NCBI GenBank assembly: GCA_036337765.1
Contig: JAYZDP010000168.1
Coordinates: 3,247 to 67,246, forward strand
From: Acidobacteriota bacterium
GTDB lineage: Bacteria; Acidobacteriota; Thermoanaerobaculia; Multivoradales; Multivoraceae
Reading direction: 5' to 3'
Length of the DNA: 64,000 nucleotides
The notes below the pieces were generated by a model. That model was not told the DNA's origin, searched no databases, and saw only the letters and a list, made by a program, of their open reading frames with translations. Shown piece after piece: positions 27,206 to 56,694 of this stretch (the stretch's first letter is position 1; the number at the start of each line of letters is the position of its first letter). A program made the translations under genes and the position numbers.

Positions 27206-27895
27206 TTGATGCGGATCCGTCTTCTAGCATTCGCCAGTGCTTGTGACGTCTTGGGCACAGCGGAAAGCGGCCTCGAGGTAGCTGCGGGTAGCACGGTCGC
27301 CCAGATGAAGGCGACGATCGAAGGGAACCACCCCCGGATGGGTGCGCTCTGGGATGGCATGGCTGTGGCCGTTAACGGCGAGCTCGCCTACGACGATCTG
27401 GCGCTGGCCGAAGGCGACGAGGTCGCCCTGCTACCCCCTGTATCTGGGGGAGTCGACGAGGCACCCGTGCTGCAGACCGAGCCGATCGACACGGGCGAGG
27501 TGACGGCGCGAGTCGAGGATTCCGGCTCTGGAGCAGTGGTCGTCTTTGTGGGCAACGTTCGCGACCGTCACGCCGGCCGAGGTGTCGAGCGGATCACCTA
27601 CTCGGCCTACGCGAAGATGGCCGCCCACCGCATCCGCTCCATCTGCGCCGATCTAGAGGACCGCCACGAACGCGCCCGTATCGTAGTGGTCCATCGCCTC
27701 GGCGAGATTGCCGTCGGCGAGGCCTCTGTGGTCATCGCCGTCGGGTCACCGCATCGGGCATCTGCGTACGAGGCCAGCAGGGAGGCACTGGAGCGGCTCA
27801 AGGCAGAGGTGCCGATCTGGAAGCATGAGCACTACAGCGACGGGGAGTCCCGTTGGCGTGAGGAGGAATCGCTCGTGGCTCCCGTCACTTCGTGA
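27206..27895 (+). CDS. moaX: molybdopterin synthase MoaD-MoaE fusion (MoaX-like)
   Basis: N-terminal MoaD/ThiS fold ending LLPPVSGG, followed in-frame by a MoaE domain (VVFVGNVRD..., ...WKHEHYSDG). Confidence 0.8.
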   Translation: MMRIRLLAFASACDVLGTAESGLEVAAGSTVAQMKATIEGNHPRMGALWDGMAVAVNGELAYDDLALAEGDEVALLPPVSGGVDEAPVLQTEPIDTGEVTARVEDSGSGAVVVFVGNVRDRHAGRGVERITYSAYAKMAAHRIRSICADLEDRHERARIVVVHRLGEIAVGEASVVIAVGSPHRASAYEASREALERLKAEVPIWKHEHYSDGESRWREEESLVAPVTS

Positions 27896-29114
27896 CCTGG
27901 CCCGGCTGTCCGACGAGGCGCGACGACAATCCCGACTCGAGCGCCTGCTGGAGCAGGAAGGCGCGCCAGGCGCCCTCGATCTCCTCCCACGAGGCCCCCA
28001 ACCTGTCTTCCAGCGTCGACGCCGCGACCGACTCACCCCTCGAGACCGACTCGAGATAGCCCAAGAACGCCTGCCGCCGCACAGTCGGGCGCACGAGAAA
28101 GCGGACCAGGAGCGCGCTCTCGGCATAGTGCAGCCGCGAGCGCGGACCCCCGACGAAGGGGCCCCACTCGAGCCGGACCAACACTCCGAGCGGCACCGCC
28201 CGGCCCTCACGCTGGGTCACGAGCAGCAGGTCCAGGCCAGCCAGGCCCCCGCGCAGCTCGACGCGATTCTCGTACTCGATCTTCCCATGTGACAGATCGG
28301 CAACGTGAAGACGGCCCTCGCCATCGAGCCTGGCTGCCGCCAGGTCGTCGGCGATGCCCTCGTCGAGCCACGGCGGCAGCGCCGGACCGAGTGATCTACG
28401 GTTGAGGAGATGCGTCAATTCATGCAGCAACGTATGCCCGACGACAGCAGGATCGAGATCGCCGACGTAGAACACCACCATCCCGTATCCGGTGTGGGCA
28501 ACGCTCGCCAGATCTCGAATCCGCCCCCACTCCGCCTGCACCGCACGGTAACCCGACTCTTCTCGAAACAGTACAAGGGTCTCCTTCGCCTCCCCAACTG
28601 GCGTCAACCCATAGCGCTCTGCATACACCCGCTCGACCTGTGAGGTGATCACATCCAGATGCTCGATCAGTGCTCCGGGAGCCACGTCCGTCACCAATCG
28701 ATAGGGGCCCAACCTCGCCTCTCTCCCCCCGTCGATGAGCCTCCCAGCCGCCGCCGACAACCGCTCCGGATCCGCTTCTCGCCCGGGCAAAGGCAACACC
28801 AGCGCCGGCTCGCTCCCCAAAGGCGGTGGCCCATCGCCCTCCCAAGCGTCGTACGCCTTCAGCCCCCTATCAACAGGGGGCATATCCACGAACGACTCCG
28901 CCGGCCCGTCGAAGACCGGCGCCGGCACATCAGGCTCGGGAGGCACGAATCTCCCGCGGACGACATCGACCACCGGGCCCAAGACCGGCCAATCCACCAC
29001 CGCCTCCACTGCCCTAGAACTCGGCCAACGAGTCAGCGACGCAAACCCCACCAACAAGATCAGCACTGAGCCTATGGCGCCAAAAGAAACGAGATCTCGC
29101 CACCACCGCCTCAC
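27885..29114 (-). CDS. membrane-anchored protein with HExxH motif (putative MA-clan zinc metallopeptidase)
   Basis: N-terminal TM segment and HELTH within LLHELTHLLN. 409 aa. Confidence 0.45.
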   Translation of the reverse strand: MRRWWRDLVSFGAIGSVLILLVGFASLTRWPSSRAVEAVVDWPVLGPVVDVVRGRFVPPEPDVPAPVFDGPAESFVDMPPVDRGLKAYDAWEGDGPPPLGSEPALVLPLPGREADPERLSAAAGRLIDGGREARLGPYRLVTDVAPGALIEHLDVITSQVERVYAERYGLTPVGEAKETLVLFREESGYRAVQAEWGRIRDLASVAHTGYGMVVFYVGDLDPAVVGHTLLHELTHLLNRRSLGPALPPWLDEGIADDLAAARLDGEGRLHVADLSHGKIEYENRVELRGGLAGLDLLLVTQREGRAVPLGVLVRLEWGPFVGGPRSRLHYAESALLVRFLVRPTVRRQAFLGYLESVSRGESVAASTLEDRLGASWEEIEGAWRAFLLQQALESGLSSRLVGQPGQVTK

Positions 29115-29191
29115 GTAGAGGCAATGCTACTCCCGCAGCCACACTCCTGCCCTACCCGCCCGACAGGCGGCGCCCCTTCCCCTCCCTCCGG

Positions 29192-29303
29192 GCCTGCGCG
29201 GCGAGCGCTCCCCCGAGGGACAGCAAGACCAGCGGGGGTCGCGGTATGAACGCGCAACACCCACGACAAACCATCAAACCATGACTACCGCGGCCCCCGC
29301 TAG
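29192..29303 (-). repeat. intergenic MITE/REP-like repeat, copy A (terminal inverted repeat AGCGGGGGTCGCGGTA / TACCGCGGCCCCCGCT)
   Basis: Aligns along its whole length with the copies at 38781-38891 and 58450-58561. The 3' end CCCCCGCTAg supplies the TAG stop of moeZ. Confidence 0.7.
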
Positions 29304-30472
29304 TAGCGGAGTACGTCGGGATCGACCTCGAGACTCCACGAGTCGATGCCACCCTTCATGTTCTTCACCTTCGAGAACCCGAACTCCTGGAGCAGATGTA
29401 CCGCCCGGGTCGAACGGGGCCCGTGGTGGCAGTGGGCAACGATGAAGTCTCGTGGGTCGAGCTCACCGATGCGGTCCTGGAGATCGGCCACTGGAATGAC
29501 GATTGAGCCGTCGATACGGCAGATCTCAATCTCCTCGGGATTGCGGACGTCGAGAATCGTGATCTGATCGCCGCGATCGAGCATCTCCTTGACTTCAGTC
29601 ACTGTGATGTCGATGTCGTCGGCGCCCGCGGGCTCCTCGATCGGGATGCCGCAGAACTGTTCGTAGTCGATCAGCTCGATCTGGGTCGGATTCTCCCCGC
29701 ACACCGGGCAGTCCGGGTTGCGACGCAGCTTGAGCTCGCGGAACTTCATGCGCAGGGCATCGAAAAGCGCGAGGCGGCCGATCATAGGCTCACCCTTGCC
29801 GATGATCAGTTTGATCACCTCGTTGGCCTGCAGCGAGCCGATGATGCCAGGCAGCACACCCAGGACCCCGCCCTCGGCGCACGACGGGACGAGCCCCGGC
29901 GGCGGCGGTTCCGGGAAGAGGCACCGGTAGCACGGTCCCTTCTCTGCCCAAAAGACCGAGACCTGCCCCTCGAAGCGGAAGATTGACCCATACACGTTCG
30001 GCTTGCCCGTCAGCACACAGGCGTCGTTGACCAGGTAGCGGGTCGGAAAGTTGTCGGTACCGTCGACCACGATGTCGTAGTCCTTGACGATGTCCAGAGC
30101 GTTGGACGAGTCGAGGCGTACCTGGTGCGGGATCAAGGTGACGTAAGGATTGACGATGTTGAGCCGCTCCATCGCCGCTTCGATCTTGGGCCGGCCGACA
30201 TCGGCCAGACCGTAGAGCAGTTGGCGATGCAGATTCGACTCGTCAACCTCGTCGAACTCGACCAGGCCCAGGGTGCCGACGCCGGCCGCGGCGAGATACA
30301 TCCCGAGCGGCGAGCCAAGCCCACCGGTACCGACCATCAGCACGCGAGCGGCCTTGAGCTTCTGCTGACCGAGCGTGCCGACCTCCGGCATGATCAGGTG
30401 GCGGCTGTAGCGCCGAATCTCCTCTGGGCTCAGGTCCGGCAGGGTGGTCGTGTCGTCTTGTACGAGGGTCAT
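29300..30472 (-). CDS. moeZ: MoeZ/MoeB-type E1-like adenylyltransferase with C-terminal rhodanese domain
   Basis: ThiF/MoeB nucleotide-binding GTGGLGSP. CxxC pairs present. C-terminal rhodanese with catalytic CHHGPRS. Confidence 0.9.
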   Translation of the reverse strand: MTLVQDDTTTLPDLSPEEIRRYSRHLIMPEVGTLGQQKLKAARVLMVGTGGLGSPLGMYLAAAGVGTLGLVEFDEVDESNLHRQLLYGLADVGRPKIEAAMERLNIVNPYVTLIPHQVRLDSSNALDIVKDYDIVVDGTDNFPTRYLVNDACVLTGKPNVYGSIFRFEGQVSVFWAEKGPCYRCLFPEPPPPGLVPSCAEGGVLGVLPGIIGSLQANEVIKLIIGKGEPMIGRLALFDALRMKFRELKLRRNPDCPVCGENPTQIELIDYEQFCGIPIEEPAGADDIDITVTEVKEMLDRGDQITILDVRNPEEIEICRIDGSIVIPVADLQDRIGELDPRDFIVAHCHHGPRSTRAVHLLQEFGFSKVKNMKGGIDSWSLEVDPDVLRY

Positions 30473-30750
30473 GGGGCTCCTCCTGCGATCGACGGGATGA
30501 TCGACAGCGTATCGCCCTCGGAAACCGGCGTCGCATCCTGCTGCAGGTGGCGCACGTCCTCATCGTTGAGGAAGAGATTGACGAAGCTGCGCAGTTTGCC
30601 GTCGTCGCTGTACAGATGGGGCTTGAGCGCCGTGTGCCGCTCGACCAGGCTCGAGAGCGCCTCGCCGACGGTCGTCCCGTCGACCTCCACCTCTCCCGCG
30701 TCGCCTATGAAGCGCTGCAGGGGCGTGGGGGCATGAATCGAAATCGCCAT
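30469..30750 (-). CDS. cysO: CysO-like ubiquitin-fold sulfur carrier protein (ThiS/MoaD family) ending ...IAGG-AP
   Basis: Clear similarity to M. tuberculosis CysO (RFVNIYVNDEDVRF vs SFVNLFLNDEDVRH; ILPAVAGG vs IIPSIAGGAP). AGGAG lies 6 nt before the ATG at 30750. Overlaps the moeZ start by 4 nt. Confidence 0.8.
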   Translation of the reverse strand: MAISIHAPTPLQRFIGDAGEVEVDGTTVGEALSSLVERHTALKPHLYSDDGKLRSFVNLFLNDEDVRHLQQDATPVSEGDTLSIIPSIAGGAP

Positions 30751-30770
30751 GCAGATCTCCTGGTTTCTTG

Positions 30771-31241
30771 CTACTCCGAAGCGGCCGTTGAGACCCCTAC
30801 TCGGCGACCCGCCGCATCGAGGACGGTCTCCTCGTCGAATGCGGTCCGGTCGTCTTTGAGCCTCCAACTACGGCAGTCGGCAACCTCTCCGCTCTGCACG
30901 GAGATGATCAGGTAACTCTGTCCTGGCCAGGCGTGGTCACGGTCGAAATCACTCGGCCGCGCCGGGTGATCGGGGTGCGAATGATAGTAGCCCACGACCT
31001 CGAACTGCCGAGCCCTCGCGCTGCGCTGTGCCTCCATTAGAGCCTGGGGACTGATCAGGAAGCGATTGTGGCGATTCTCGTCCTCACGCTCGTTTCGCGC
31101 CGAGACGATCTCGACCACCTCGGCCTGATCGCCGTTACGGAGAGTCCCGATCATCACCCCGCAGCACTCCTCGGGGTAGGTCGCGCGGCCGTCCGCGTAG
31201 ATCCGCTCGATGTCGTCGTCGGTCAGTTGCAGGCTCATCAT
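30771..31241 (-). CDS. mec: Mec+/JAMM (MPN+) zinc metalloprotease
   Basis: JAMM motif E..(EECCG)...HSHPDHPARPSDFD (HxHx7Sx2D). 156 aa. Confidence 0.8.
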   Translation of the reverse strand: MMSLQLTDDDIERIYADGRATYPEECCGVMIGTLRNGDQAEVVEIVSARNEREDENRHNRFLISPQALMEAQRSARARQFEVVGYYHSHPDHPARPSDFDRDHAWPGQSYLIISVQSGEVADCRSWRLKDDRTAFDEETVLDAAGRRVGVSTAASE

Positions 31242-31735
31242 TCGTCCCAGAAACGCTCAGATAAGTACTTGTCGGCGCTGCCGCAAAGGACCGTCACGAG
31301 AGTGCCGGCCTCGATCTCACGACTGAGCGCGAGCGCCGACGAGACCGGGATCATAAATCGGCGGCACGATCGCTGTCTCCATGTGTTTCATGCCTTCCAG
31401 GCCGTGGAACGGCCCGTCCGGCTCGATGGATACGAGCCGGGCCCTCGATCCTGCTCTCTGAGCGCCTCGCGAATCGCACCGCCGAAGCCTTCCACCGGAT
31501 CAGTCAGGACCAACTCGGCACCGTACGCCGCGAGAATCCGCTTCTCGGGCGACAGCGCGCCCCGCGCGATGGCATCCTCGACCATCGCCAGACCGGGGCG
31601 GTCTTTCACCGATCCGCCGGGGTTGGTGTACTCGGCCTTGGCGAATAGCCGGACCTCTGGATTACCCACCAGGTCGACGACCCGGCACGGCCGAGGCAAG
31701 CCGCGAGAGGTGGGAGGAGTGGAGGTCAGGGCCAT
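31238..31735 (-). pseudogene. cysM: decayed remnant of cysteine synthase cysM/cysK (PLP fold-type II)
   Basis: The N-terminus has the PLP-lysine motif NPGGSVKDRP, but the TSGNTG loop region is deleted. An in-frame TGA lies at 31388-31390. The C-terminal ...LVTVLCGSADKYLSERFWDE is present. Total span is about 500 nt against about 950 nt for an intact gene. Its stop overlaps the mec start (ATGA). Confidence 0.65.
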
Positions 31736-31825
31736 GGGAGCACGGATCCTAGCAAAACGTGACCTTTTTACTAACAATTAGGAAAACGAGCGATTCCGGG
31801 CGCTGGCGGAGCTACAATCCGCTCG

Positions 31826-32473
31826 ATGGACGACACGCCCCACACCGCTGACGACAGGGTCCCTCCCGGTCAGTACGTAACCGACAAGTGGCCAGTTCTG
31901 AGCTACGGACCGACTCCCGAAGTGGATCTCTCCCGATGGCGGCTGCGGATCTTCGGCTCGGTAGCCACCGACCGAGCGCTCAGCTGGGAAGATCTCCAGG
32001 CCCTAGAGAGGACCGATCTCATCGCCGACTTCCACTGCGTGACGCGGTTTTCGACACTCGACAACCCGTGGAGCGGATTCGCCACGCGGCGCATTCTCGA
32101 ACTCGCCGACGTCGCCCCAGAATCGATCCACGTGATGATCCACTGCGCGGATGGCTACACCACCAACCTCCCCCTCGAGGACCTCCTCTCCGAACGGGCG
32201 CTCGTGGCCGATCGTCACGCCGGGGAGCCGCTGGCCGCGGATCACGGTGGGCCCCTGCGGCTGATCGTGCCGCACCTCTATGCCTGGAAGAGCGCCAAGT
32301 GGGTCTCCGGCATCGAGATCCTGGAGAGCGACCGGCGCGGTTTCTGGGAGCAGGCCGGCTACCACACCTACGGCGACCCATGGACCGAGCAGCGCTTCAG
32401 TTCGCAGGAGTTCACGGCAGCGCACCAGGTCCGGCGCCGAGCGAAGGAACTGGGCCTCAAGCTCACCTCCTAG
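31826..32473 (+). CDS. sulfite-oxidase-family molybdopterin-binding oxidoreductase domain protein (YedY/SorA-like)
   Basis: Moco-binding motif ADFHCVTRFS (HCVTxWS). 215 aa. Confidence 0.75.
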   Translation: MDDTPHTADDRVPPGQYVTDKWPVLSYGPTPEVDLSRWRLRIFGSVATDRALSWEDLQALERTDLIADFHCVTRFSTLDNPWSGFATRRILELADVAPESIHVMIHCADGYTTNLPLEDLLSERALVADRHAGEPLAADHGGPLRLIVPHLYAWKSAKWVSGIEILESDRRGFWEQAGYHTYGDPWTEQRFSSQEFTAAHQVRRRAKELGLKLTS

Positions 32474-32488
32474 GAAGCACCGCCACCT

Positions 32489-32950
32489 TCAGCGCGCGAT
32501 CTCTTCGAGCTTCTGGCGTAGCTTGGCGCGATCTTCGATGCCGCGCGCGATGATCAGGATCGTGTCGTCTCCCGCCAATGTGCCGACGACCTCTGGCAGC
32601 CCACACTCGTCGAGTGCCACAGCGACAGCGTTGGCGCGACCGCTCAGGGTTCTGAGCACGAGCAGCGAGTCGCCCGTGTCGATCTTGGTCAGGTACTGCT
32701 CGCAGGCACGGCTCAACTGCCGTTCGAGTCGCTGCTGCGAAGGGCCGCCAGTGCCAGGCGCGGCGTAGCGATAGCCGCCGCGACGTGCCGGCCGTTTGAC
32801 CAGGCCAAGGCGCTTGACGTCTCGTGAGACGGTCGCCTGTGTGACGTCGAAGCCGCGGTCACGGAGGCGCTCGACAAGCGAAGACTGGTTGGCGACAACC
32901 GAGTCCTCGACGATCTCGAGGATGGCGTGCTCGCGAGCCCGTTGGCTCAC
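32489..32950 (-). CDS. argR: arginine repressor
   Basis: N-terminal winged helix (SQSSLVERLRDRGFDVTQATVSRDVKRLGL) and a C-terminal oligomerisation/arginine-binding domain (GDDTILII). Confidence 0.9.
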   Translation of the reverse strand: MSQRAREHAILEIVEDSVVANQSSLVERLRDRGFDVTQATVSRDVKRLGLVKRPARRGGYRYAAPGTGGPSQQRLERQLSRACEQYLTKIDTGDSLLVLRTLSGRANAVAVALDECGLPEVVGTLAGDDTILIIARGIEDRAKLRQKLEEIAR

Positions 32951-34407
32951 AGAGCGTCTCCCGCGAGTCGACCCTCATCGTAGGCTCGGCGAATGGGCGA
33001 GGCCTCGATACCGTCGAGCCAATCACCGAGCTCGCCCAGGGCGCCTGCAGCCTCTTCGAGCTGGTCGCCGACACTCTCGGGCGCCGGGCCGCCGCGGTGC
33101 CGCTTTCGTCCAGCCGAGCTCTCGGGACGCAGAATTTCGAACACGTCGGCCTCGATCTGTGATGAGACCTCCTGAAGCTCGGCGAGCTCGAGCTCCCACA
33201 GCTCTCCACCCTTCTCTTCGGCGCTACGCACCGCCTGACCCGCCAGGTGGTGCGCCGAACGGAACGCCACCCCCTTCGCCACCAGGTAGTCGGCGAGGTC
33301 GGTGGCGGTGAGAAACCCTCCGACCAAGGCCGCCGCCATCCGGTCGGGACAGAAGTTCAGGCCTCCGGCGATCGCTGCGGCACACTCGAGCGAGGCAGCT
33401 GCCGTGTCGAGAGCGTCGAACAGGCCCTCCTTGTCTTCCTGCAGATCGCTGTTGTACGTCAGCGGCAGACCCTGAAGCACACTGAGAAGGCCCGCGAGAT
33501 CTCCGATCACGCGCCCCGTCTTCCCGCGCAGGATCTCCGCCGCTTCCGGGTTCTTCTTCTGCGGCATGAGGCTCGATCCCTTGGCGATCGAGTCGTCCAG
33601 GGTCGCGAAGCCAAACTCGGGCGTCGTCCATAGGATCACCTCGGTCGCGAAGCGTGACAGGTGCACCATCGCCAGCGAAGAGACGAAGATCGCCTCGGCC
33701 ACGTAGTCGCGATCGCTAACGGCCAACATGGAGTTCGGGTACGAGTCGACAAAGCCCAGGAGCTCGGCGCTGCGCTTGGGTGCGATCGGGTAGGGAGATC
33801 CGGCGAGCGCGCCGGCGCCGAGCGGGCTGCGGAAGCCACCGTCGTGCAGCGTGCGCAGGCGCCGCGCATCCGCCTCGAACGACCAGAAATGTGCCAGCAG
33901 ATGATGGGCCAACGATACCGGCTGGCCGCGCTGCAGATGCGTATATCCGGGCAGCCACGTCTCGCGATGCTCTGCGGCGAGGTCGAGCCAGAGCTCGAGA
34001 AGCAGACCCGTTCGGCGTGCCAGGTCGACGAGGCTCGTACGCACGTACAGGCGCAGGGCCGTCGCGGTCTGATCGTTGCGCGAGCGAGCCGTGTGCAGAC
34101 GCAGCGCAGGCTCGCCGATCCGATCCGTCAAGTTGCGCTCGATCCAGCTGTGAACGTCCTCGTCCGGCCCCTCGACCTGGAGGACCCCGGCCTCGATGTC
34201 GGCTAGGAGGCTCGCCAGGCCAGCCAAGATGGCTTGGCCGTCGCTGCCGGTCAGGACCTCCTGCTCCAAGAGCATGCGCGCGTGCGCCATCGAGCCCTCG
34301 AGATCGTGCGACACCAAGCGCCGGTCGAAGGACAGCGCCGAGGTGAAGGCGTCGATGCGGGCATCCACGCCGCCTGAGAACCGTCCTCCCCAGAGCTTCT
34401 GGCTCAC
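32947..34407 (-). CDS. argH: argininosuccinate lyase
   Basis: MSQKLWGGRFSGG N-terminus and fumarate-lyase signature GSSLMPQKKNP. Confidence 0.95.
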   Translation of the reverse strand: MSQKLWGGRFSGGVDARIDAFTSALSFDRRLVSHDLEGSMAHARMLLEQEVLTGSDGQAILAGLASLLADIEAGVLQVEGPDEDVHSWIERNLTDRIGEPALRLHTARSRNDQTATALRLYVRTSLVDLARRTGLLLELWLDLAAEHRETWLPGYTHLQRGQPVSLAHHLLAHFWSFEADARRLRTLHDGGFRSPLGAGALAGSPYPIAPKRSAELLGFVDSYPNSMLAVSDRDYVAEAIFVSSLAMVHLSRFATEVILWTTPEFGFATLDDSIAKGSSLMPQKKNPEAAEILRGKTGRVIGDLAGLLSVLQGLPLTYNSDLQEDKEGLFDALDTAAASLECAAAIAGGLNFCPDRMAAALVGGFLTATDLADYLVAKGVAFRSAHHLAGQAVRSAEEKGGELWELELAELQEVSSQIEADVFEILRPESSAGRKRHRGGPAPESVGDQLEEAAGALGELGDWLDGIEASPIRRAYDEGRLAGDAL

Positions 34408-34422
34408 GCCTCCTCCTCCGCC

Positions 34423-35607
34423 TCAGCCCGCAGGTTTCTCGGTCAGAAACGACGACACCACGCGCGAGAAGATCCCGAGCGCCCGATCGACCTCGCTGGA
34501 CTTGACGTTCAGCGGCGGCGCGAACCGGATACTGGTGGGTCGAACGGCGTTGACCAGAAGACCCTCCTCGAGACACTTCACCGCTACCGGACCGGCCTCG
34601 ATGGCGAGCTCGGCGGCGACCAGCAGGCCCATGCCGCGGGTCGAGACGACCCCCTCGATGCTTTCGAGCTCCGAGCGCATACGGTCCCCCATCTCGGCCA
34701 CGTTGACGAGCAGGCCCTCTTCCTCGATCGTCTCGAGCACCGCGACCGCGGCCGCACAGGCCAGCGGGTTGCCACCGAAAGTCGTTCCGTGGTCACCGGG
34801 AACGAGGATCTCGGCGGCCTCGCCGCGAGCCAGCGTTGCACCGATCGGCACTCCGCCGCCGAGGCCCTTGCCGAGGGTCATGACGTCCGGAACTACGCCG
34901 TAGTGCTGATAGGCGAACAGCGGTCCGGTCCGACCAACGCCAGTCTGGACCTCGTCTAGGACGAAGAGCAGGTCGTGGTCGCGGCACAGCTCCGCGATGC
35001 CATTTACATACTCGGGCGAGCCGGGCACGACGCCATTCTCGCCCTGCATCGGCTCGATCAGGATCGCGCAGGTTTTGTCCCCGATCGCCCCGCGGGCAGC
35101 CTCTAGATCGTTGTAGTCGACGAAGACGAAGCCTTCGGGCAGCGGACCGAAGCCCTGGTGGTAGCGGGGAGTGCCGGTAGCGGCCAGACTCCCGAGGGTC
35201 CGACCGTGGAAGCCGCCGTGGGTGACGATGATCTCGTAGCGCCCGCTGGCATTGCCCCGCTTGCGCGCGATCTTGATGGCGGCCTCGTTGGCCTCCGTGC
35301 CGCTGTTACAGAAGAAGACACGATCCATGCCCTCGCCACGGCTGCGACTGCCTTGGATCAGAAGCTCGGCGGCTCTCTCCTGCTCGGGAATGCGGTAGAA
35401 GTTGGAGACGTGGATGTAGCGCTCGGCCTGGCCGGCAATCGCCCTGACCAGGCGCGAGTGGGCGTGGCCCAGACTCGAGGTCGCGATGCCGGCGAGGAAG
35501 TCGAGGTACTCGTGGCCGCGTGCGTCCCACAGATGCACACCACGACCGTGAGTGAACGAGACCTGGTACCGACCGTAGTTTTGAAACAGATAGTCGTCGC
35601 CGCTCAT
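34423..35607 (-). CDS. argD: acetylornithine aminotransferase (class III)
   Basis: Class-III aminotransferase layout with PLP-lysine context DVMTLGKGLGGG. 394 aa. Confidence 0.9.
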   Translation of the reverse strand: MSGDDYLFQNYGRYQVSFTHGRGVHLWDARGHEYLDFLAGIATSSLGHAHSRLVRAIAGQAERYIHVSNFYRIPEQERAAELLIQGSRSRGEGMDRVFFCNSGTEANEAAIKIARKRGNASGRYEIIVTHGGFHGRTLGSLAATGTPRYHQGFGPLPEGFVFVDYNDLEAARGAIGDKTCAILIEPMQGENGVVPGSPEYVNGIAELCRDHDLLFVLDEVQTGVGRTGPLFAYQHYGVVPDVMTLGKGLGGGVPIGATLARGEAAEILVPGDHGTTFGGNPLACAAAVAVLETIEEEGLLVNVAEMGDRMRSELESIEGVVSTRGMGLLVAAELAIEAGPVAVKCLEEGLLVNAVRPTSIRFAPPLNVKSSEVDRALGIFSRVVSSFLTEKPAG

Positions 35608-36488
35608 GATTGGGGGGCTCCCTTTTCCTTGCGGATCATCGTTCCGACGCCGGACTCGGTGAAGAGCTCCACCAACACGCCGTGGGGCTCTCCCGCGGCG
35701 ATGATGTGCGAGCTCGGTACGCCGTCGACAACGGCGCTGACGCAGGCCTCGAGCTTCGGCACCATGCCGCTGGAGACCACGCCGGTCTTCATCAGATCCG
35801 CCGCCTCGTCGGGATTCAGCGTCGTGATGCGTTGCTCACCGTTGCATGTGGGGCCATGGATGCCCTGCACATCGGTCAGCACGATCAGCTTTTCCGCCCC
35901 CAGAGCGACGGCCAGGCCCGCGGCCACTGTGTCGGCGTTGAGGTTGTAGGTCTCGCCGGCGGGACCGAAGCCGATGGAGCACACCACCGGAATGTAGTTT
36001 TCACGGACCAGAAGCTCGATGATCTCACTCGAGACCTGCTTAACCTCGCCGACGAAGCCGAGCTCGGCGGCGCGTGGGTGGGGGCTCGCTTCGAGTAGCT
36101 TGCCGTCCTTCCCCGACAGCCCGACGGCCCGGCCACCGTGGTCCTGGATCATCGAGACCAGGCGCTTGTTCACACGTCCGGCGAGCACCATCTCGACCAC
36201 GTCGACCGTCTCCTGATCGGTCACCCGAAGACCGTCGATGAACTGGGGCTGAATGCCGAGCCGTTCGAGAGTGCGCGAAATCTCGGGTCCGCCGCCGTGC
36301 ACGAGCACCGGGCGCAACCCCGACTGCTGCAGTAGCACGAGGTCCTCGACCAGGGTGCCAATCTCATTCTTTTCGAGCGCGCGGCCGCCGAACTTCACCA
36401 CCACCCGTTTGCGGCGCCACTCGGCGACGTAGCGCAGAGCGCGGTCGAGCTGGGCTCCGAAGTCGGCGTGATTCTCGGAGTCGGTCAC
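35604..36488 (-). CDS. argB: acetylglutamate kinase
   Basis: RVVVKFGG nucleotide-binding start and amino-acid-kinase fold. GTG start at 36488 overlaps the argJ stop (GTGA); the listed ORF opens at 36542. Confidence 0.85.
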   Translation of the reverse strand: MTDSENHADFGAQLDRALRYVAEWRRKRVVVKFGGRALEKNEIGTLVEDLVLLQQSGLRPVLVHGGGPEISRTLERLGIQPQFIDGLRVTDQETVDVVEMVLAGRVNKRLVSMIQDHGGRAVGLSGKDGKLLEASPHPRAAELGFVGEVKQVSSEIIELLVRENYIPVVCSIGFGPAGETYNLNADTVAAGLAVALGAEKLIVLTDVQGIHGPTCNGEQRITTLNPDEAADLMKTGVVSSGMVPKLEACVSAVVDGVPSSHIIAAGEPHGVLVELFTESGVGTMIRKEKGAPQS

Positions 36489-37714
36489 GAGATGTAGCTC
36501 CCGTTGATGCGGATGTACTCCTCGGTCAGGTCCGACGTCCACACGGTGGTGGCGGCGGCGCCAGACGCGAGGTCGATCCGCACGTCGACGTTGGGCTTGC
36601 GCAGCTCTGCCTCGGCCGCAGCCAGGTTGTCGTCGACGACCATGCCACCCTCGGCGACCAGGACGCTGTTGAACCAGATGCGCGTCTCGGCCTCTACCAT
36701 TGCGACCGAGGCCCGACCCGCGGCGGCGATGATCCGGCCCCAGTTCGCCTGGCAGCCGTAAAAGGCGGTCTTGACCAGCGGCGAGGTGGCGATCGTGTTC
36801 GCGGCCCTCTTCGCCTCTGCGGCATCGGCCGCCCCCTCGACGGTAACGCCGATCAGTTTGGTTCCACCCTCGGCGTCGCGCACCACCATCTTCGCCAACT
36901 CGAGGGCGACGGCCGCGAGGCCGGCGACGAAGGCGTCGAAGTCGGGGCCGCTGTCCGGTACCTCCACTCCCGCCGCACCGTTGGCGAGCGCGAGAGCCGT
37001 GTCGTTGGTACTGGTGTCACCGTCCACCGTGATGCAGTTGAACGAGCCGTCAATAGCGGCCCCTAGCGCCTCTTGCAGCACCGGCGCCGGAACCGCCGCA
37101 TCGGTGGTCAGAAAGCACAGAGTCGTTGCCATGTCCGGGTGGATCATGCCCGCGCCTTTCGACATGCCGCCGACCACGACCTCACCGCCGGCCAGGCGGA
37201 TGCGGGCCGCAGACGTTTTCGGCACGGTATCTGTGGTCAGGACCGCCTCGGCCGCGGCGGCACCGCTCGAGCCGAGCTCGGCGACCACCTTCGGAATCCC
37301 GGCGCGAACGGCAGCCATATCGAGCCACGCACCAATGTGCCCCGTGGAGCACACCGCCACATGGCTCGACACCAACCCCAGCTCCTCGGCGAGCTGCGAG
37401 GCCATATCCTGGGCGTCGTTCATGCCGCGCTCGCCGGTGCAACAGTTGGCGTTGCCACTGTTGCACAGGATTGCCCGTGCGGCGCCTCCAGCCACCACGC
37501 GCTGCGACACCAGGACCGGCGCGGCTTTGACCACGTTGCGGGTGAAGACTCCCGCCACCGTCGCCGGACGGTCGGACAGGATCAGGGCGAGATCGAGCTT
37601 CGATCGCTTCAGACCGCAGTGCACGCCGGCCGCGCGATAGCCCGCCGGAGCCGTGATGTCGCCGGCGAAGAGCTCGTGGATGGAATCGCTCACGGATACA
37701 GAGGCGGTAGCCAT
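36485..37714 (-). CDS. argJ: bifunctional glutamate N-acetyltransferase / amino-acid N-acetyltransferase
   Basis: GYRAAGVHCGLK, KLDLALI, and the autoproteolytic ATML-type site (ATTLCFLTTDA). ATG at 37714 is preceded by GAGGAGGAAGG. Confidence 0.9.
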   Translation of the reverse strand: MATASVSVSDSIHELFAGDITAPAGYRAAGVHCGLKRSKLDLALILSDRPATVAGVFTRNVVKAAPVLVSQRVVAGGAARAILCNSGNANCCTGERGMNDAQDMASQLAEELGLVSSHVAVCSTGHIGAWLDMAAVRAGIPKVVAELGSSGAAAAEAVLTTDTVPKTSAARIRLAGGEVVVGGMSKGAGMIHPDMATTLCFLTTDAAVPAPVLQEALGAAIDGSFNCITVDGDTSTNDTALALANGAAGVEVPDSGPDFDAFVAGLAAVALELAKMVVRDAEGGTKLIGVTVEGAADAAEAKRAANTIATSPLVKTAFYGCQANWGRIIAAAGRASVAMVEAETRIWFNSVLVAEGGMVVDDNLAAAEAELRKPNVDVRIDLASGAAATTVWTSDLTEEYIRINGSYIS

Positions 37715-38721
37715 AGGCCTTCCTCCTCGGGCAAGCCGAACATCAGGTTCATGCACTGAATCGCCTGACCCGCGGCCCCCTTGACCAGGTTGTCGAGTGC
37801 CGCGACCCCGACCAGGAGCGAGCGCTCGGGCGAGACCACGACCGATACGTCGCAGAAGTTGGATCCCTGGGTCGCCTTCGTCTCCGGCAACTTGTCGGTG
37901 AGGACGCGGACGAAGGGCTTGTCGTCGTAGTAGGAGACGTAGAGCTCTTCGGCCTCGCCGGAGCCGAGCGGCTCGGCCAGCTGCAGGTAGCAGGTCGATA
38001 CGATGCCGCGGGTCATGGGGATCAGGTGCGGCGAGAAGAAGACCGACTCCGGTGCCCCGGCATCGGCGAGCGTCTGCTCCATCTCAGGCATGTGCCGGTG
38101 CTTCCCGAGGCTGTAGGGGCGCACGTTCTCGTTGATCTCACCGAAGTGAGAGCTGAGATTGGCAGCACGGCCCCGGCCGGAGACACCGGACTTGGCGTCG
38201 ACGATGACCGTGGCGCCGGGCTGGCGCAGCACAAGCCCGGGAAGCAGGGCCAGAGCGGCGGCCGTCGGATAGCAGCCCGGGCAGGCCGTTAGACGCGCAC
38301 AGGCCAGGGCCTCGCGGTTTAGCTCCGGCAGACCATAGACAGCTTCCGGCAGCAGGTCCGGTGCCGCGTGCTCGGCGCCATACCAGGTGGCGTAGACCTC
38401 GGGGTCGTGCAGCCGGAAGTCGGCACCGATATCCACTACCTTCGCTCCCGCCTCGAGCAGGGTCGGGGCAGCCTCGACCGACAGGCCGTGAGGCAGGGCC
38501 AGAAAGACGACGTCGGAAGCGTCGCCGAGCGCTGCCCAATCGGCCTCGACGAGCTCGCGCTCCTCGATCGAGCGGAAGCCGGGAAACGACTCGTCCATCC
38601 GCAGCCCGCTCTGCGAGCTCGCGGTGAGCGAGGCGAGCTCCACGCCCGAATGGCCCAATAGCAGCCGAACGAGCTCACTTCCCGAGTAGCCGGAGGCTCC
38701 GACAACGCTTGCACGAATCAT
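37690..38721 (-). CDS. argC: N-acetyl-gamma-glutamyl-phosphate reductase
   Basis: MIRASVVGASGYSG N-terminus and active-site Cys in PGCYPTAA. Alternative ATG at 38739 (MNNDSF...). Confidence 0.9.
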   Translation of the reverse strand: MIRASVVGASGYSGSELVRLLLGHSGVELASLTASSQSGLRMDESFPGFRSIEERELVEADWAALGDASDVVFLALPHGLSVEAAPTLLEAGAKVVDIGADFRLHDPEVYATWYGAEHAAPDLLPEAVYGLPELNREALACARLTACPGCYPTAAALALLPGLVLRQPGATVIVDAKSGVSGRGRAANLSSHFGEINENVRPYSLGKHRHMPEMEQTLADAGAPESVFFSPHLIPMTRGIVSTCYLQLAEPLGSGEAEELYVSYYDDKPFVRVLTDKLPETKATQGSNFCDVSVVVSPERSLLVGVAALDNLVKGAAGQAIQCMNLMFGLPEEEGLWLPPLYP

Positions 38722-38722
38722 G

Positions 38723-38740
38723 AATGAATCATTATTCATT
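38723..38740 (-). promoter_or_regulatory. ARG box (ArgR operator) AATGAATcattATTCATT overlapping the argC start and promoter
   Basis: Matches the TnTGAATwwwwATTCAnw consensus (TGAAT-N4-ATTCA). It sits in the only AT-rich patch of the region. A sigma70-like TTGCAT-N17-AATAAT on the minus strand (38759-38754 / 38736-38731) overlaps it. Confidence 0.6.
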
Positions 38741-46067: not shown

Positions 46068-46835
46068 CTACATTCCGGCGGCAGCCGCTGCTGCGGCCGC
46101 GGCCTGCGTCCGCTCGTCGTGCCAGCTCTGATAGTCCTGCTGCGACTGGATATGAAGGAAGCCCTTCATCCGGTAGTGAGTCAATCCGCACAGCTGGGCA
46201 CACGCGACCTCCGACTCCCCGGTCTGCTTGGCGACGAAGTGGACCGGAATCGTCTGGCCCGGAATCGTGTCCTGCTTCACCCGCAGGTAGGGCAAGTTGA
46301 GGCTGTGGATCACGTCCTTCGAGGTGAGGTAGAGGATGATCGGCTTGTCGACAGGAAGGTAGAGGTTGTTCAGCGTGTGGATGTCGTCCGCGGAAGCCGG
46401 ATCGTCGCGATCCAGGCCGAGCGGGTTGGCTGCCGTATCCACCAGCTCGGGAGCGGTCCGTCCCCACTCGCCGTCGGCGCCAGGATAGTGGAAGTTCCAG
46501 GCGAACTGCTCGGCGACGACACGTATGCGTTCGGACTCGTTCTCGTCAGGGAGTTCGGCGACACGCTCGTTCCACAACGGAAACGCGAAGGCGACGAGAA
46601 TGGCCACCTCGAATACGACGACTGCGACTTCGACGTACTTCGAGATCGTGCCCTTCGCGCCGTGATAGTCCGCCTTCGGGCTCGCGCCGGCTCGGAACTT
46701 GATGAGCACCAAGATGTAGTAAGCACCCCATCCAACGAAGAGGATCAGCATGACCCAGTGGATCAGGGCGATCAGGTTGTCGATCGGGGCCCCGTGAGCC
46801 GACCAATCGGGAGGAAGGTTGAGAAAGTCCTTCAT
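46068..46835 (-). CDS. coxB: cytochrome c oxidase subunit II (CuA, no fused cytochrome c domain)
   Basis: Two N-terminal TM helices and the CuA motif H...CAQLCGLTHYRM. ATG at 46835 is preceded by GGAGGA. No CxxCH. Confidence 0.9.
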   Translation of the reverse strand: MKDFLNLPPDWSAHGAPIDNLIALIHWVMLILFVGWGAYYILVLIKFRAGASPKADYHGAKGTISKYVEVAVVVFEVAILVAFAFPLWNERVAELPDENESERIRVVAEQFAWNFHYPGADGEWGRTAPELVDTAANPLGLDRDDPASADDIHTLNNLYLPVDKPIILYLTSKDVIHSLNLPYLRVKQDTIPGQTIPVHFVAKQTGESEVACAQLCGLTHYRMKGFLHIQSQQDYQSWHDERTQAAAAAAAAAGM

Positions 46836-47098
46836 CAATGGATTCCTCCGCGCAGGACCTGAAGACTCTTCTTCCGGTCCTCGCGATACTTGGCACGTTT
46901 CCGAAACTGCCAGAAGAGACTGACGAAACCGACCTGAACCAGGCCGACCACGCCCAAAAGAAAGAGAATGGCGTTGTTCATGCCCTTCGTCGCCGCGTCG
47001 TTGGGATCGCCGAAACACGCCTGGCACGCGGACGCAGTACCAGGCAGAGCAAGAACCACCACCAGGCCGAGACAAAGAGCTACTAGCACACGCTTCAT
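46835..47098 (-). CDS. small membrane protein (88 aa) between coxIV and coxB
   Basis: Signal/TM MKRVLVALCLGLVVVLALPGTASA plus a second TM. CQAC pair. Its stop overlaps the coxB ATG. Confidence 0.4.
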   Translation of the reverse strand: MKRVLVALCLGLVVVLALPGTASACQACFGDPNDAATKGMNNAILFLLGVVGLVQVGFVSLFWQFRKRAKYREDRKKSLQVLRGGIH

Positions 47099-47300
47099 CG
47101 CGGGAGCTCCTTGAGCTTGCGCCGCACACGGACGCCGTAGGTCATAAGCACGGGTACCGCCACGAGCGACAGCAACCCGTAAACGAGGCCGAGTATCGAA
47201 CCGTCTGCGACAAAGCCGCGTAGGCCCCACGATCCGGTCCCCACCGCAAGCACGGTACAGATCGTGATGAAGAGGATGTGAACAGCACCTAGAGACATGC

Positions 47301-47630
47301 TCAGTGACCCAGGCCCCAAGAGCTCCACTGGATGCTCAGCGAATCGGCGTAGCCGGACAGCGGCACCGCGATCAGGACGACAAAGAACAGGGCAGTGATC
47401 ATCAGCGTCCACATGATCGTCCGGACTTCGCCCTTCAAGTGCATGAAGAAGAGTGCGACCAACGACGCCTTCACCGCCGCGATCAGCAACGCCAGCGTGA
47501 TCGCGAGACCTATCGGAATGTCGAGGTAGCTCGCCAGGACCGTGACGACGGTCCCGACGGCGAGCGCGCCGAAAACCAGCATGTAGACCTTGACCGAGGC
47601 GCGAATCTCTTCCGGGCTGTGACCGCTCAT
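47301..47630 (-). CDS. cytochrome c oxidase subunit IV (prokaryotic caa3/aa3 type)
   Basis: 109 aa, three TM helices, typical CtaF/CoxD size and position after subunit III. Confidence 0.7.
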   Translation of the reverse strand: MSGHSPEEIRASVKVYMLVFGALAVGTVVTVLASYLDIPIGLAITLALLIAAVKASLVALFFMHLKGEVRTIMWTLMITALFFVVLIAVPLSGYADSLSIQWSSWGLGH

Positions 47631-48259
47631 CAGTGGCCTCCTCCGGCGACAACGCCAGCTCCAGGCAGGAGATAGAGGACCGGGAACAGGAAGATCCAGA
47701 CCAGGTCGACGAAATGCCAGTACAGCCCGGCCACCTCGATTCGATTAGCGAAGCGGTCCGGTTCGGTCTGAAACATCTTCGAGCCCGGCCCCCAGAGGTA
47801 GCCGTTGACGATCAGCCCGCCGATGACGTGCAGCATGTGAAGCCCGGTCAGCACGAAGTAGATGCCGAGGAAGGTCGAGTTCGCGGGAAAGTCACCGTGC
47901 GAGAACTTGGTGCCGTATTCGTAGGCCTTGATACCCAGGAAGGCAAGCGCGCACAGGCACGTGATGCCCATGTAGAGCTTGTACTTGGCGAAATCGTTGA
48001 GCTTGAGCGAGGCCCACGACATGACCATCGTCACACTCGAGGCGATCAGCACGAGGGTGTTCACGAAGGCGACTGGGACATTGAGAATGTCGGAGCCGGT
48101 CGGCCAGGCGGGAGCGGCGGTCCTGAGCAGGATGTAGGTCGAGAACAATGCTCCGAAGAGCATCACCTCGGAAGCGAGAAACAGCCAAACGCCCAGCTTC
48201 GCGTTATACAGGCCCGTTTCGGGATTCGGGTCTACGTTGTACGGGATGACGACTGACAT
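47630..48259 (-). CDS. coxC: cytochrome c oxidase subunit III
   Basis: Heme-copper oxidase subunit III fold (MSVVIPYN..., conserved W/H-rich helices). 209 aa. Confidence 0.9.
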
Positions 48260-48261
48260 CT

Positions 48262-50028
48262 TCAGGCCTCCTGTGGCTGGCTCTGCGCCGTGAAGTCCTC
48301 ATCGGAGCCCGGAGCGCTGTACTCATAGGCGGGCCGGAAGACGGTCGGGATCTTCGGAAAGTTGCCATGGCCGATCGGTGGCGACGGCGCGTCCGTCCAT
48401 TCCAGCGTCGTTGCTCTCCAGGGGTTGCCCCCGACTTTCTCGCCAGTCTTCAAGCTCATGAAGAAATTGACGATGAAAAAGATCTGCACCACTGCGAGTC
48501 CGAAGGCCGACCAGGTCATCATCTTGTTCCACACCATGACGTCCTTGGCGAACTCGTAGGTCAGCCCACCGTCGTACAGGCGTCGCGACAATCCGGCCAT
48601 GCCCTGGATGAGCATCGGGAAGAAGATGCCGTTGATGAACAGGAGGGACGGCCAGAAGTGCAGCTTGCCGAGCAGTTCCGACATCTTGCGACCCGTCACC
48701 TTCGGGTACCAATAGTAGATCCCGGCAAAGATGGCGAAGATCGTGCCCGGAGCCACAACGTAGTGGAAGTGGCCGATAACGTAGTACGTGTCGTGCAGCG
48801 GGATGTCCGACGCCGTCAGCCCGAGGGGCAGGCCGGTCAGACCGCCGATCGCGAACATGGGGAGAAACGCCAGCGCGAAGAGCATCGGCGTGTTGAAGCG
48901 AATCGAGCCGCCCCACAGCGACAGCAGCAGACACGTCAGGATGATCACCGAGGGAATGGAGATGATCATCGTCGTAGTCTGGAAGAAGGCGCTGATCACT
49001 GTGCCCATGCCGGTCATGAACATGTGATGGGCCCAGACGATGAATGACATGAAGCCGAGAAAAACCACCGAGTACACCAGTGACTTGTAGCCCCAGATGG
49101 GCTTGCGGGTGTTGTTGGCGATGATCTCTCCGACCATTCCCATGGCGGGCAGCACGAGAACGTAGACCTCGGGATGGGCCAGAAACCAGAACAAGTGCTG
49201 CCAGAGCAACGGGCTGCCGCCCCCGCTCCTGAAATCCTCCATCTCACCGCTGATCACGAGGCCGTCGGGCATGAAGAAGCTCGTGTCGACGAGGCGATCG
49301 AAGAGCTGCAGAACTCCCGCCGCCTCCAGCGGTGGGAAGGCCAGCAGAAGTAGGAACGAGGTCACGAGCTGTGCCCAAACGAAAAAGGGAAGCCGCATCC
49401 AGGTAAGCCCCGGCGCGCGCATCTGAATGATGGTGACCAGGAAATTTACGGCGCCCAGAAGTGAAGACGTGATGAGCAGGATCATTCCGAACAGCCAGAC
49501 CGTCTGCCCGTCCTCGAGGACCGATAGCGGCGGATAGGACGTCCAACCCGACCGAGCCGCGCCGCCCGGCAGAAAGAAGCTCGACGCCATCAAAAGCCCG
49601 CCAGGCAGGAAGCACCAGTAACTCGCCATGTTCAGCTTCGGGAACGCCATGTCGGGCGCGCCGATCTGAAGCGGAACCACGTAGTTGCCGAAGGCGCCGA
49701 CGAGCAGCGGAACGACAGCCATGAACACCATGATGGTGCCGTGCATCGCGCCGAGCTGGTTGTAGAACTCCGGCAGCATGATGCCGCCGGGTGCGTTGTC
49801 GGCCCCGAAGAGTCCGCCGATCGCTGGGATCGGCTTGCCCGGATACGCCAGCTGCCACCGCATGAGCAGCATCAAGCAGAAGCCGAGGAGCATGAACACC
49901 AGCGCGGTCAACCCGTACTGGATGCCGATCATCTTGTGATCCTGGGAGAAGACGTACTTCCGCCAGAAGCTCTCCTCGTGGTGCTCCTCGTGAGCGTCGG
50001 CGTGGGAGTCGGTGGTTGCAGGTTCCAT
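48262..50028 (-). CDS. coxA: cytochrome c oxidase subunit I
   Basis: 12+ TM helices, heme/CuB ligands (GHPEVY, HHMF, HFHYV). Confidence 0.95.
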
Positions 50029-50034
50029 AAGTCT

Positions 50035-50934
50035 CTATCCTCCGAGCCCTGGAACATGCTCCAGGAGCGACAGCCCGAACACGACCGGGATGTAAAGCAC
50101 CGAGCCCAAGAGCACCCGGCGAGCCGCAGACTTCGACCGATCTCTGGCGAATCCGACCGACGTCCAGAGGAACGCGAGCCCGGCGACCGTCGAGCCGACC
50201 AGAAAGATCGTCCCGCCGAAACCGAGCGACGGGGAGACCGCCGTCAGCAGGACGAGCATCACACTAGTGATGAGCATCCAAAACGAGGTCCGCCCACCAG
50301 TGCGATCGAGAACCGGGAGGATGGGGAAGCCCCCTCGTTCGTAGTCCTCTCGGTGCATCCAGCCGATGGCCAAGAAATGAGGGATCTGCCAAAAGAAGAC
50401 GATGCCGAAAAGCACCCAGGCACCGAGATCGAGTCGCCCGGCAGCTGCCGCCCAGCCGATGACGGGGGGCAGCGCACCCGGCACGGCGCCTACCAGGGTG
50501 GAGATCGGTGTCTTCGTCTTCAGCGGCGTATACAGAAAGAGATAGGAGAACGAAGTCGCGGCACCCAGCGCTGCAGCGAGTGGGTTGACCCGCCAAGCCA
50601 GAAGGAGCACCGACAGCACCGTCAGCACACTGCAGACAACGAGCACCAAACCACGATCGACACGGCCCGCCGCGATCGGTCGATCGGCGGTGCGGTCCAT
50701 GCGCGCGTCCTGGCGCACCTCGATGACCTGATTAAGCGCCGACGCGCAGCTCGCGAGGATGCCGGTCGCGACAATCGCCTCGAGCACAGCAAGGCTCGGG
50801 ACCGCCATGGGCGCGGCCAGAAACGCCCCCGCCGCCATGGTGATCAACACCATCAGCGTGATGCGAGGTTTCGTCAACTCGCTGAGGTCGCTCCAACCGA
50901 CCTCGTGGCTCATCTGCGCAGCTCCGGCTTTCAT
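50035..50934 (-). CDS. ctaB: protoheme IX farnesyltransferase (heme O synthase)
   Basis: UbiA-family polytopic protein. N-terminal LTKPRITLMVLIT. Confidence 0.9.
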   Translation of the reverse strand: MKAGAAQMSHEVGWSDLSELTKPRITLMVLITMAAGAFLAAPMAVPSLAVLEAIVATGILASCASALNQVIEVRQDARMDRTADRPIAAGRVDRGLVLVVCSVLTVLSVLLLAWRVNPLAAALGAATSFSYLFLYTPLKTKTPISTLVGAVPGALPPVIGWAAAAGRLDLGAWVLFGIVFFWQIPHFLAIGWMHREDYERGGFPILPVLDRTGGRTSFWMLITSVMLVLLTAVSPSLGFGGTIFLVGSTVAGLAFLWTSVGFARDRSKSAARRVLLGSVLYIPVVFGLSLLEHVPGLGG

Positions 50935-50994
50935 CTCCCGTCCAATCGATCAAACGCGCGGAGGCGATCCGATCGCCCCCGCACCGTTAGTTCA

Positions 50995-51771: not shown

Positions 51772-51840
51772 AACCTCCTTGTACTGGAATCGAGGCTGCG
51801 GACCGGGTTCTTTTCGTGAGCCCGTAGTGGAATCGCAGCC

Positions 51841-54771: not shown

Positions 54772-54832
54772 GGCTCTTCCTTTCAGGAGGCTTGCTGGCT
54801 AGAGGCTTCGATCTGAATCTCGCGGCGCTCGG

Positions 54833-55915: not shown

Positions 55916-56694
55916 CAGACGGGCCCCGAGATTCCACCGTCCTTACGGACGCGCCAGAAGTGAACGGCCATCAGGAACGCGGCGATGAGCGGGATGCCGA
56001 CGCAGTGCAGCACGTAGAAGCGCAACAGCGTGGCACCACCGATGACTCGGCCGGCGATCAACCCGAACCGCGCATCGCTGCCGACGTGGACCAGGTTCTG
56101 CCCCCCCAACGTGAGAAAGGCGGCACCCGGACCCTCAGCGCCGAGTAGCGGCGTCGCACGGGCCATGTTCGAGCCGACGGTGATCGCCCAGATGGCGAGC
56201 TGATCCCAGGGAAGGAGGTAGCCGGTGAACGACAGCATCAGGGTCATCACTAGCAGCAGAACGCCTACGTTCCAGTTGAACTCGCGCGGAGGCTTGTACG
56301 AACCGGTCATGAAGACCCGGAACATGTGCAGCCACACAGCGATGACCATGGCGTGCGCACCCCACCGGTGCAGCTCGCGCATGATGCCGAAGGCGACCGC
56401 CTCGCGCAGGTCCACCATGTCGACGTAGGCGTACTCGATGGTCGGCCGGTAATAGAACATCAGCAGCAACCCGGTGATGGTCTCGACCAGGAAGAGAAAG
56501 AAAGCCGTCCCTCCCATGCACCAGGTGTAGCTCATCCTGATACCCGACTTCTTCACCTTCACCGGGTGAAGATGCAGCACCACGTTGCCCAGCATCGCCA
56601 GGGCTCGCTTGCGGTTGTCGGTAGGGATCCCGACCCGGAAGATCGACTTCCAGACCTGAGACTTGACGATCGCCTTCTGCAGGAAATTCAGCAT
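55915..56694 (-). CDS. petB: cytochrome b6-type cytochrome b (N-terminal heme-binding domain)
   Basis: [33 protein letters not shown] and [14 protein letters not shown] match cytochrome b6/b N-terminal signatures with the His heme ligands. Confidence 0.85.

Follow-up and report, generated by a model that had tools for sequence, protein, structure and literature searches.

The 498 nt at positions 31238-31735 on the minus strand of the window (the whole 64-kb stretch of DNA that was analyzed, from a marine Acidobacteriota genome) are very probably a non-functional, neutrally evolving pseudogene of cysM, which encodes the PLP-dependent cysteine synthase acting in the CysO-thiocarboxylate pathway, and lie just upstream of mec. 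The relic itself is an ordinary pseudogene of a well-known kind, and a search of the literature returned no report of it; what is added here is a pattern of recurrent cysM loss in related loci and a lead on the function of mec and moeZ.

Structure and coding capacity of the cysM relic

By employing tblastn, DNA alignment and a profile search, the region was resolved into five colinear pieces of the ancestral gene, separated by deletions that were defined by DNA alignment with six intact cysM genes. In the direction of reading, all on the minus strand, the features are:

31238..31735, minus strand: the whole cysM relic, 498 nt
31661..31735, minus strand: piece A, codons 1-25, MALTSTPPTSRGLPRPCRVVDLVGN
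Junction 31661/31660, ending piece A: 36-nt deletion, 12 codons lost
31543..31660, minus strand: piece B, PEVRLFAKAEYTNPGGSVKDRPGLAMVEDAIARGALSPE, with the PLP-binding lysine codon at 31604-31606
Junction 31543/31542, ending piece B: 114-nt deletion, 38 codons lost, TSGNTG among them
31463..31542, minus strand: piece C, KRILAAYGAELVLTDPVEGFGGAIREA, starting after the 114-nt deletion
Junction 31463/31462, ending piece C: 183-nt deletion, 61 codons lost, the GLGTSGT loop among them
31339..31462, minus strand: piece D, LREQD, then the 1-nt deletion, then RLVSIEPDGPFHGLEGMKHMETAIVPPIYDPGL out of frame
Junction 31448/31447, within piece D: 1-nt deletion, a single base
31388..31390, minus strand: premature TGA, terminating a 115-aa ORF (ORF 31388..31777; ATG at 31735)
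Junction 31339/31338, ending piece D: 107-nt deletion, GVSAG serine lost and frame shifted
31238..31338, minus strand: piece E, the C-terminal end ALALSREIEAGTLVTVLCGSADKYLSERFWDE and its stop codon, which overlaps the mec start (ATGA)

Intact CysM proteins from two related loci, L001 (OY761158.1) and L002 (CALOFD010000068.1), matched the window in tblastn with E-values of 3e-24 and 2e-22, in three pieces and two frames, and a profile built from 122 intact orthologs gave four colinear matches in the relic (E 6e-17 to 8e-11). Colinear homology at the orthologous position is thus combined with disabling lesions, as in a unitary pseudogene. The original prediction had been of a cysM or cysK gene cut to a remnant of roughly 500 nt, about half the intact span, and both statements hold, the relic measuring 498 nt against ~940-950 nt in intact orthologs. 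A full-length, single-frame cysteine synthase alignment over 31238-31735, named in that prediction as counter-evidence, was found neither by tblastn nor by DNA alignment with orthologs. A protein search with the stitched relic gave no intact homolog nearer than the GTDB loci described below.

Reading on the minus strand starts at an ATG at 31735-31733 with MALTS and runs via NPGGSVKDRPGLAMVEDAIARG to AYGAELVLTDPVEGFGGAIREALREQD, after which it enters unrelated residues and stops at the TGA at 31390-31388, the in-frame stop that had been predicted. The same frame picks up again as SSALALSREIEAGTLVTVLCGSADKYLSERFWDE and ends at a TGA at 31240-31238. The retained C-terminal end, LVTVLCGSADKYLSERFWDE, and the overlap of its TGA with the mec ATG (31241-31239) as ATGA at 31241-31238 had likewise been foreseen. 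Both ends of the relic lie in one frame because the 1-nt deletion and the 107-nt deletion together remove 108 nt. What the original prediction had overlooked is the conserved middle block RLVSIEPDGPFHGLEGMKHMETAIVPPIYDPGL at 31447-31339, which is kept in another reading frame. Its account of the deletions stands for the lost TSGNTG region and needs correction in number and size: there are four large deletions and a 1-nt deletion instead of two, by which ~147 of ~316 codons and ~441 nt are missing. Programmed frameshifting or recoding, as another way to read the frame changes, was ruled out, as 147 codons including catalytic loops are physically gone.

Intact orthologous CysM aligns end to end with the CysM structures of E. 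coli, Salmonella and M. tuberculosis. When the relic was aligned to E. coli CysM via such an ortholog, only one of the four classical PLP/substrate motifs was recovered, namely the Schiff-base lysine of the S-x-K-D-R type, in GGSVKDRP; the longer motif NPGGSVKDRP is retained as predicted, with the lysine codon AAA at 31606-31604. The substrate-carboxylate Asn loop TSGNTG went with the 114-nt deletion, the glycine-rich PLP-phosphate loop (G-T/L-G-T-S-G-T) with the 183-nt deletion, and the G-x-S-x-G serine contacting the PLP pyridine nitrogen with the 107-nt deletion. Where a cysteine synthase has a single ORF of ~300 codons above the Pfam gathering threshold, the relic has two frame changes and a premature TGA. 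Alignment to PF00291 and to the orthologous loci, which had been proposed as a check on the prediction, agrees with it: PALP (PF00291) scores 32.1 bits, below the cut-off of 35 bits, in its sole match in piece B, and the orthologs reveal the deletions. No second cysK/cysM homolog was found in the 64-kb window by tblastn with intact ortholog queries, leaving the CysO-thiocarboxylate operon without a functional CysM partner within the window. With the catalytic loops gone and the frame broken, no cysteine synthase can be made from the relic, and the CysO-dependent cysteine route should therefore be off in this lineage. When the metabolism of this marine Acidobacteriota lineage is reconstructed, that route should consequently not be credited to it.

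Some of the deletions carry traces of their possible origin. In orthologs, a direct repeat that encodes KRIL twice borders the stretch lost in the 114-nt deletion (in L003, AGCGGATCCTCG, with 12/12 bases matching). The stretch corresponding to the 36-nt deletion is bordered in L001 by imperfect direct repeats, CTGGTCGGGAAT and CTGGTCGAGAAC. Direct repeats, at least those at the 114-nt deletion, would be typical of slippage or illegitimate recombination. As a general principle, bacterial pseudogenes are reportedly eroded by a deletional bias, a view associated with Mira, Ochman and Moran (2001). The relic resembles such pseudogenes: deletions, including one flanked by direct repeats, account for most of its decay, point changes are few and it evolves at a neutral rate; it is distinctive only in heading a still conserved operon.

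In GenBank, the 5' fragment of the relic (31388-31735, minus strand) is annotated as MEE2777726.1, 'hypothetical protein VYE73_13305', and not as a pseudogene; the source is an Acidobacteriota MAG. This 115-aa entry should carry a cysM pseudogene flag instead of the name 'hypothetical protein'. An ORF of 38 codons, MIPVSSALALSREIEAGTLVTVLCGSADKYLSERFWDE, at 31238-31354 (minus strand) begins within the relic and stops at the ATGA overlap with mec, and the gene caller predicts the same ORF in L082, the second strain treated below. It could reflect translational coupling to mec, or have no meaning. On the plus strand, an ORF at 31068-31781 (237 aa) was considered as a gene and rejected, as it matches no family and its GC3 shows no coding-type signal.

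A second strain with the same deletions

By exact sequence look-up of the neighboring oxidoreductase gene, an independent marine-metagenome assembly contig of 1512 nt was found (L082; ERZ909419/SRR5007147), which overlaps positions 31192-32702 of the window. Its four large deletion junctions are identical to those of the window, whereas the base at 31447/31448 is retained, i.e. the 1-nt deletion is absent. Over the 1512 nt the two differ at 10 places, the 1-nt indel and nine other positions. A third contig, a Logan contig from SRR22804949, encodes an identical CysO, and its upstream gene stops exactly 150 nt before mec, which is the spacing between the premature TGA and mec in the window. Exact look-ups gave contigs for CysO and the oxidoreductase only, and those of the window Mec, MoeZ and 115-aa ORF matched no contigs.

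These two contigs bear directly on the possibility that the relic arose in sequencing or assembly, through a collapsed or chimeric MAG contig. The relic does come from a MAG contig, and four deletions within 1 kb are unusual. Against this, the four junctions recur in L082, from a different run, despite the 10 other differences, the SRR22804949 contig has the same stop-to-mec spacing, and the remaining window genes are long uninterrupted ORFs with normal family matches, so that general assembly damage is no issue. An artefact is accordingly extremely improbable, and the assembly collapse that the original prediction had named as a possible objection is counted out by the same evidence. On the evidence of these contigs, the lesions of the pseudogene are real.

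The comparison of the two strains also gives an indication of relaxed selection. The 498-nt relic differs between the strains by 6 substitutions and 1 indel, the flanking 1013 nt by 3 substitutions; the counts are small, and Fisher's test gives p = 0.04 on substitutions alone and p = 0.02 once the indel is counted. Five of the six relic substitutions are replacements when read in the ancestral frame. Those in the window are S to F, V to A and, at the invariant D of LCDxADKY, D to G, while a replacement in L082 is G to S at the G that is invariant in GLEGMKH. Both strains encode the same oxidoreductase protein, and the two nucleotide differences in its gene are silent. As a rough estimate, two silent differences over the 648 nt of this gene imply a neutral rate close to the relic divergence of ~1.2% per site. 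What remains of cysM thus appears to be under relaxed selection, on small counts.

The differences between strains also affect another explanation, that the shortened ORF has become a new functional small protein, e.g. a CysO- or PLP-binding fragment or a regulator. In its favor, the start codon and the PLP-lysine motif are kept, NCBI annotates a protein, and in L082 only one of the four large deletions shifts the frame. On the other hand, the product differs between the strains (115 aa in the window and 139 aa in L082, with different C-termini), replacements gather at formerly invariant residues, and the ORF lacks most of both fold domains and has no above-threshold family match. A new small protein is consequently very unlikely, and a pseudogene remains the preferred reading.

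The retained codons of the relic have 68-75% amino acid identity to intact orthologs, and the orthologs 70-77% among themselves. Because there is no excess divergence, the inactivation should be recent on the scale of the divergence of the sampled species; it is nevertheless older than the split between the window strain and the L082 strain. In the proposed history, an ancestral cysM-mec-cysO-moeZ operon would have lost ~441 nt of cysM by four internal deletions, and the window strain would later have lost one further base.

Partner genes and repeated loss of cysM in related loci

The genes downstream of the relic, and the region upstream of it, are as follows:

30771..31241, minus strand: mec, intact JAMM/MPN+ metalloprotease with motifs EECCG and HSHPDHPARPSDFD (Pfam Prok-JAB, E = 3e-27; PDB relatives)
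30469..30750, minus strand: cysO, intact sulfur carrier of the ThiS/MoaD fold (Pfam ThiS), ending SIAGG-AP
29300..30472, minus strand: moeZ, intact, with a ThiF-type adenylyltransferase fused to a rhodanese domain (Pfam ThiF, E = 5e-82; Rhodanese, E = 3e-18)
31736..31825, no strand: intergenic region of 90 nt, A+T-rich, between divergent genes, identical in L082
31826..32473, plus strand: molybdopterin-binding oxidoreductase domain gene, divergent from the relic (Pfam Oxidored_molyb, E = 2e-40), found in 55 of 80 related loci

That the partners mec, cysO and moeZ are intact was correctly called in the original prediction: all three are full length with their catalytic motifs in place, and the set comprises a JAMM protease (E...HxH...D), a ThiS-fold carrier with a GG motif and a ThiF-rhodanese activator. 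The best PDB relatives of CysO are 4n6e_B and 3dwg_C, the latter being the M. tuberculosis CysO chain. Identities between the window and L001/L002 (66-67% for Mec, 69% for CysO and 83-84% for MoeZ) are essentially equal to those between L001 and L002, i.e. there is no rate acceleration or excess divergence. Compared with the M. tuberculosis CysM-CysO-Mec-MoeZ pathway (Rv1336, Rv1335, Rv1334 and Rv3206c; PMC3227635), the same four protein families are present, but here cysM has decayed to a pseudogene, moeZ belongs to the operon (gene order cysM-mec-cysO-moeZ), and the window CysO has two extra residues past its GG. Judging from this GG-AP ending, C-terminal trimming would be needed to expose the GG, in which respect the window CysO is unlike that of M. 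tuberculosis. Orthologous CysO C-termini read GG-GGAR or GG-RVR.

A scan with the Mec protein, using one genome per species, gave 80 loci, all in Acidobacteriota and mostly in Thermoanaerobaculia, the closest having 66-71% Mec identity. In 78 of these, cysM is full length, as a single match directly upstream of mec. In L001 and L002, cysM has 316 codons and ends in a stop that overlaps the start of mec; cysO and moeZ come next. These operons share with the window the synteny of argH, argR, oxidoreductase, cysM, mec, cysO, moeZ, a protein of 409-432 aa and moaD-moaE, with partner proteins 66-84% identical to those of the window. They differ from it in that their cysM is one ORF of 316 codons, of which the window lacks ~147. 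In a metagenome scan with Mec, the nearest match had 61% identity, and no genome of the same species with an intact or intermediate cysM was found.

Altogether six other loci lacked cysM, two out of the 80 genome loci and four from the metagenome scan. In L071 the order is oxidoreductase followed by mec-cysO-moeZ, without cysM, while in L077, L102, L111, L112 and L098 mec is directly followed by moeZ, with neither cysO nor cysM. Five of the six retain cysM DNA relics just upstream of mec:

L071, 5766-6003: 102 nt from the 3' end of cysM, containing indels (E = 9e-20)
L111, 3000-3493: three colinear pieces (best E = 5e-14)
L112, 3500-4012: 95 nt (E = 1e-10)
L077, 5824-6010, and L102, 3700-4012: the same pair of short cysM pieces in both

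A cysO relic of ~33 nt was also found between mec and moeZ in L112. In these six loci the cysM relics (0-170 nt) are far more eroded than that of the window. By MoeZ comparison, the nearest relatives are L036 for L071 (86%), L094 for L111 (88%) and L042 for L077 and L102 (85%), whereas the window MoeZ groups with L001, L002, L003 and L083, in which cysM is intact, and with L139, a short contig that ends before cysM. Since the nearest MoeZ relative of each cysM-less locus has an intact cysM, the losses are independent, and cysM would thus have been lost at least five times, besides the event in the window. Across these loci, cysO tends to be lost after cysM, and mec and moeZ stay in every case, with the window as the freshest stage of a recurrent process. 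The resulting series of states, from the full operon over a fresh relic and a short relic to the absence of both cysM and cysO, sets the dispensable parts of the sulfur-carrier pathway apart from the non-dispensable mec and moeZ. There is about an even chance that cysO is by now dispensable in the window as well.

A simpler account would be that the partners in the window are intact merely since the loss of cysM is recent, in which case mec, cysO and moeZ form a useless set that will decay and no second function is needed. This fits the lack of excess divergence in the retained cysM codons, and also the absence of cysO from five of the six other cysM-less loci, as not all partners are protected. 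It fits poorly with mec and moeZ, which are retained with intact domains in all six, after at least five independent losses, some of which are old, with cysM down to 30-100 nt; moreover, MoeZ has a known second role (PMC3227635). Mere recency is for these reasons an unlikely explanation. The odds are about even that mec and moeZ are instead under selection through work beyond cysteine synthesis, most plausibly sulfur activation and processing for the molybdenum cofactor.

As for the persistence of the relic itself, the odds are roughly even that it is kept by its position between the upstream promoter region of the operon and mec, with its 3' end abutting or overlapping the mec start. The intergenic region 31736-31825 is presumed to hold the promoters of both the relic-mec-cysO-moeZ transcript and the oxidoreductase gene. 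A promoter and terminator scan identified no consensus promoter in that region; its one weak promoter-like site, at 31379-31350 within the relic, is no better than chance. An Rfam scan of 29000-33000 detected neither a riboswitch nor a leader RNA, all its matches being sub-threshold and due to chance. In L071, L111 and many intact loci, a GGAGG upstream of mec is supplied by the FWEE codons at the cysM end, and a Shine-Dalgarno-like core was found at only 90 of 154 inferred starts; the window has GGGACGA instead. A Shine-Dalgarno reason for keeping the cysM 3' end is therefore no more than partly supported.

Molybdenum-cofactor neighbors and the wider surroundings

On the far side of moeZ, the window contains a further gene of molybdenum-cofactor synthesis:

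27206..27895, plus strand: fused moaD-moaE, a MoaX-like molybdopterin synthase of 229 aa (Pfam ThiS and MoaE)

The MoaD part of this protein ends within the chain at LLPPVSGG. The same fusion neighbors the locus in 31 related loci, L071 and L111, which lack cysM, among them. Mycobacterial MoeZR sulfurates CysO and also the MoaD proteins of molybdenum-cofactor synthesis (PMC3227635). In M. tuberculosis the fusion protein MoaX has to be cut behind its GG, and the study concerned did not identify the protease (PMC4326299). Like MoaX, the window protein joins MoaD to MoaE in a single chain, with the GG inside it (PMC4326299); this likeness is a feature of the neighboring gene, not of the relic, and provides context only. 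A literature search gave no later identification of the MoaX-processing protease and no report of Mec acting on MoaX.

With a JAMM protease gene next to the gene of an activating enzyme, Mec is an obvious candidate for the cleavage of the fused MoaD-MoaE. From the repeated independent loss of cysM, usually along with cysO, the strict retention of mec and moeZ and the molybdenum-cofactor genes beside them, one could tentatively propose a primary role of the pair outside cysteine synthesis, such that Mec and MoeZ mainly serve molybdenum-cofactor synthesis, where Mec would cut MoaD-MoaE after its GG and MoeZ would thiocarboxylate the released MoaD, a doubtful scheme as a whole. If it were true, Mec would be a candidate for the protease that processes MoaX-type fused molybdopterin synthases (PMC4326299), and the window relic would show an operon in the course of losing its cysteine branch. 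In this sense the locus offers a lead, connecting the JAMM protease Mec with how fused molybdopterin synthases are processed.

Several further observations concern the surroundings. In the window and the other loci with a match, the oxidoreductase gene is on the strand opposite to cysM, mostly directly upstream and divergent, whereas that of L002 (4329-4982) runs in the same direction as cysM; the difference points to a local inversion in L002. Between moeZ and moaD-moaE, at 27885-29114 (minus strand), is a gene for a 409-aa protein without a Pfam family, whose position is conserved in L001 and L002 with an identity of only 39-45%. The locus is adjoined by a complete arginine cluster, argR, argH, argD, argB, argJ and argC, at 32489-38739 (minus strand), of which argH and argR are syntenic in L002. 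Further away, at 46068-56694 (minus strand), a respiratory block encodes cytochrome oxidase subunits II and I, a UbiA-type prenyltransferase, a multiheme cytochrome c of 976 aa and a split cytochrome b.
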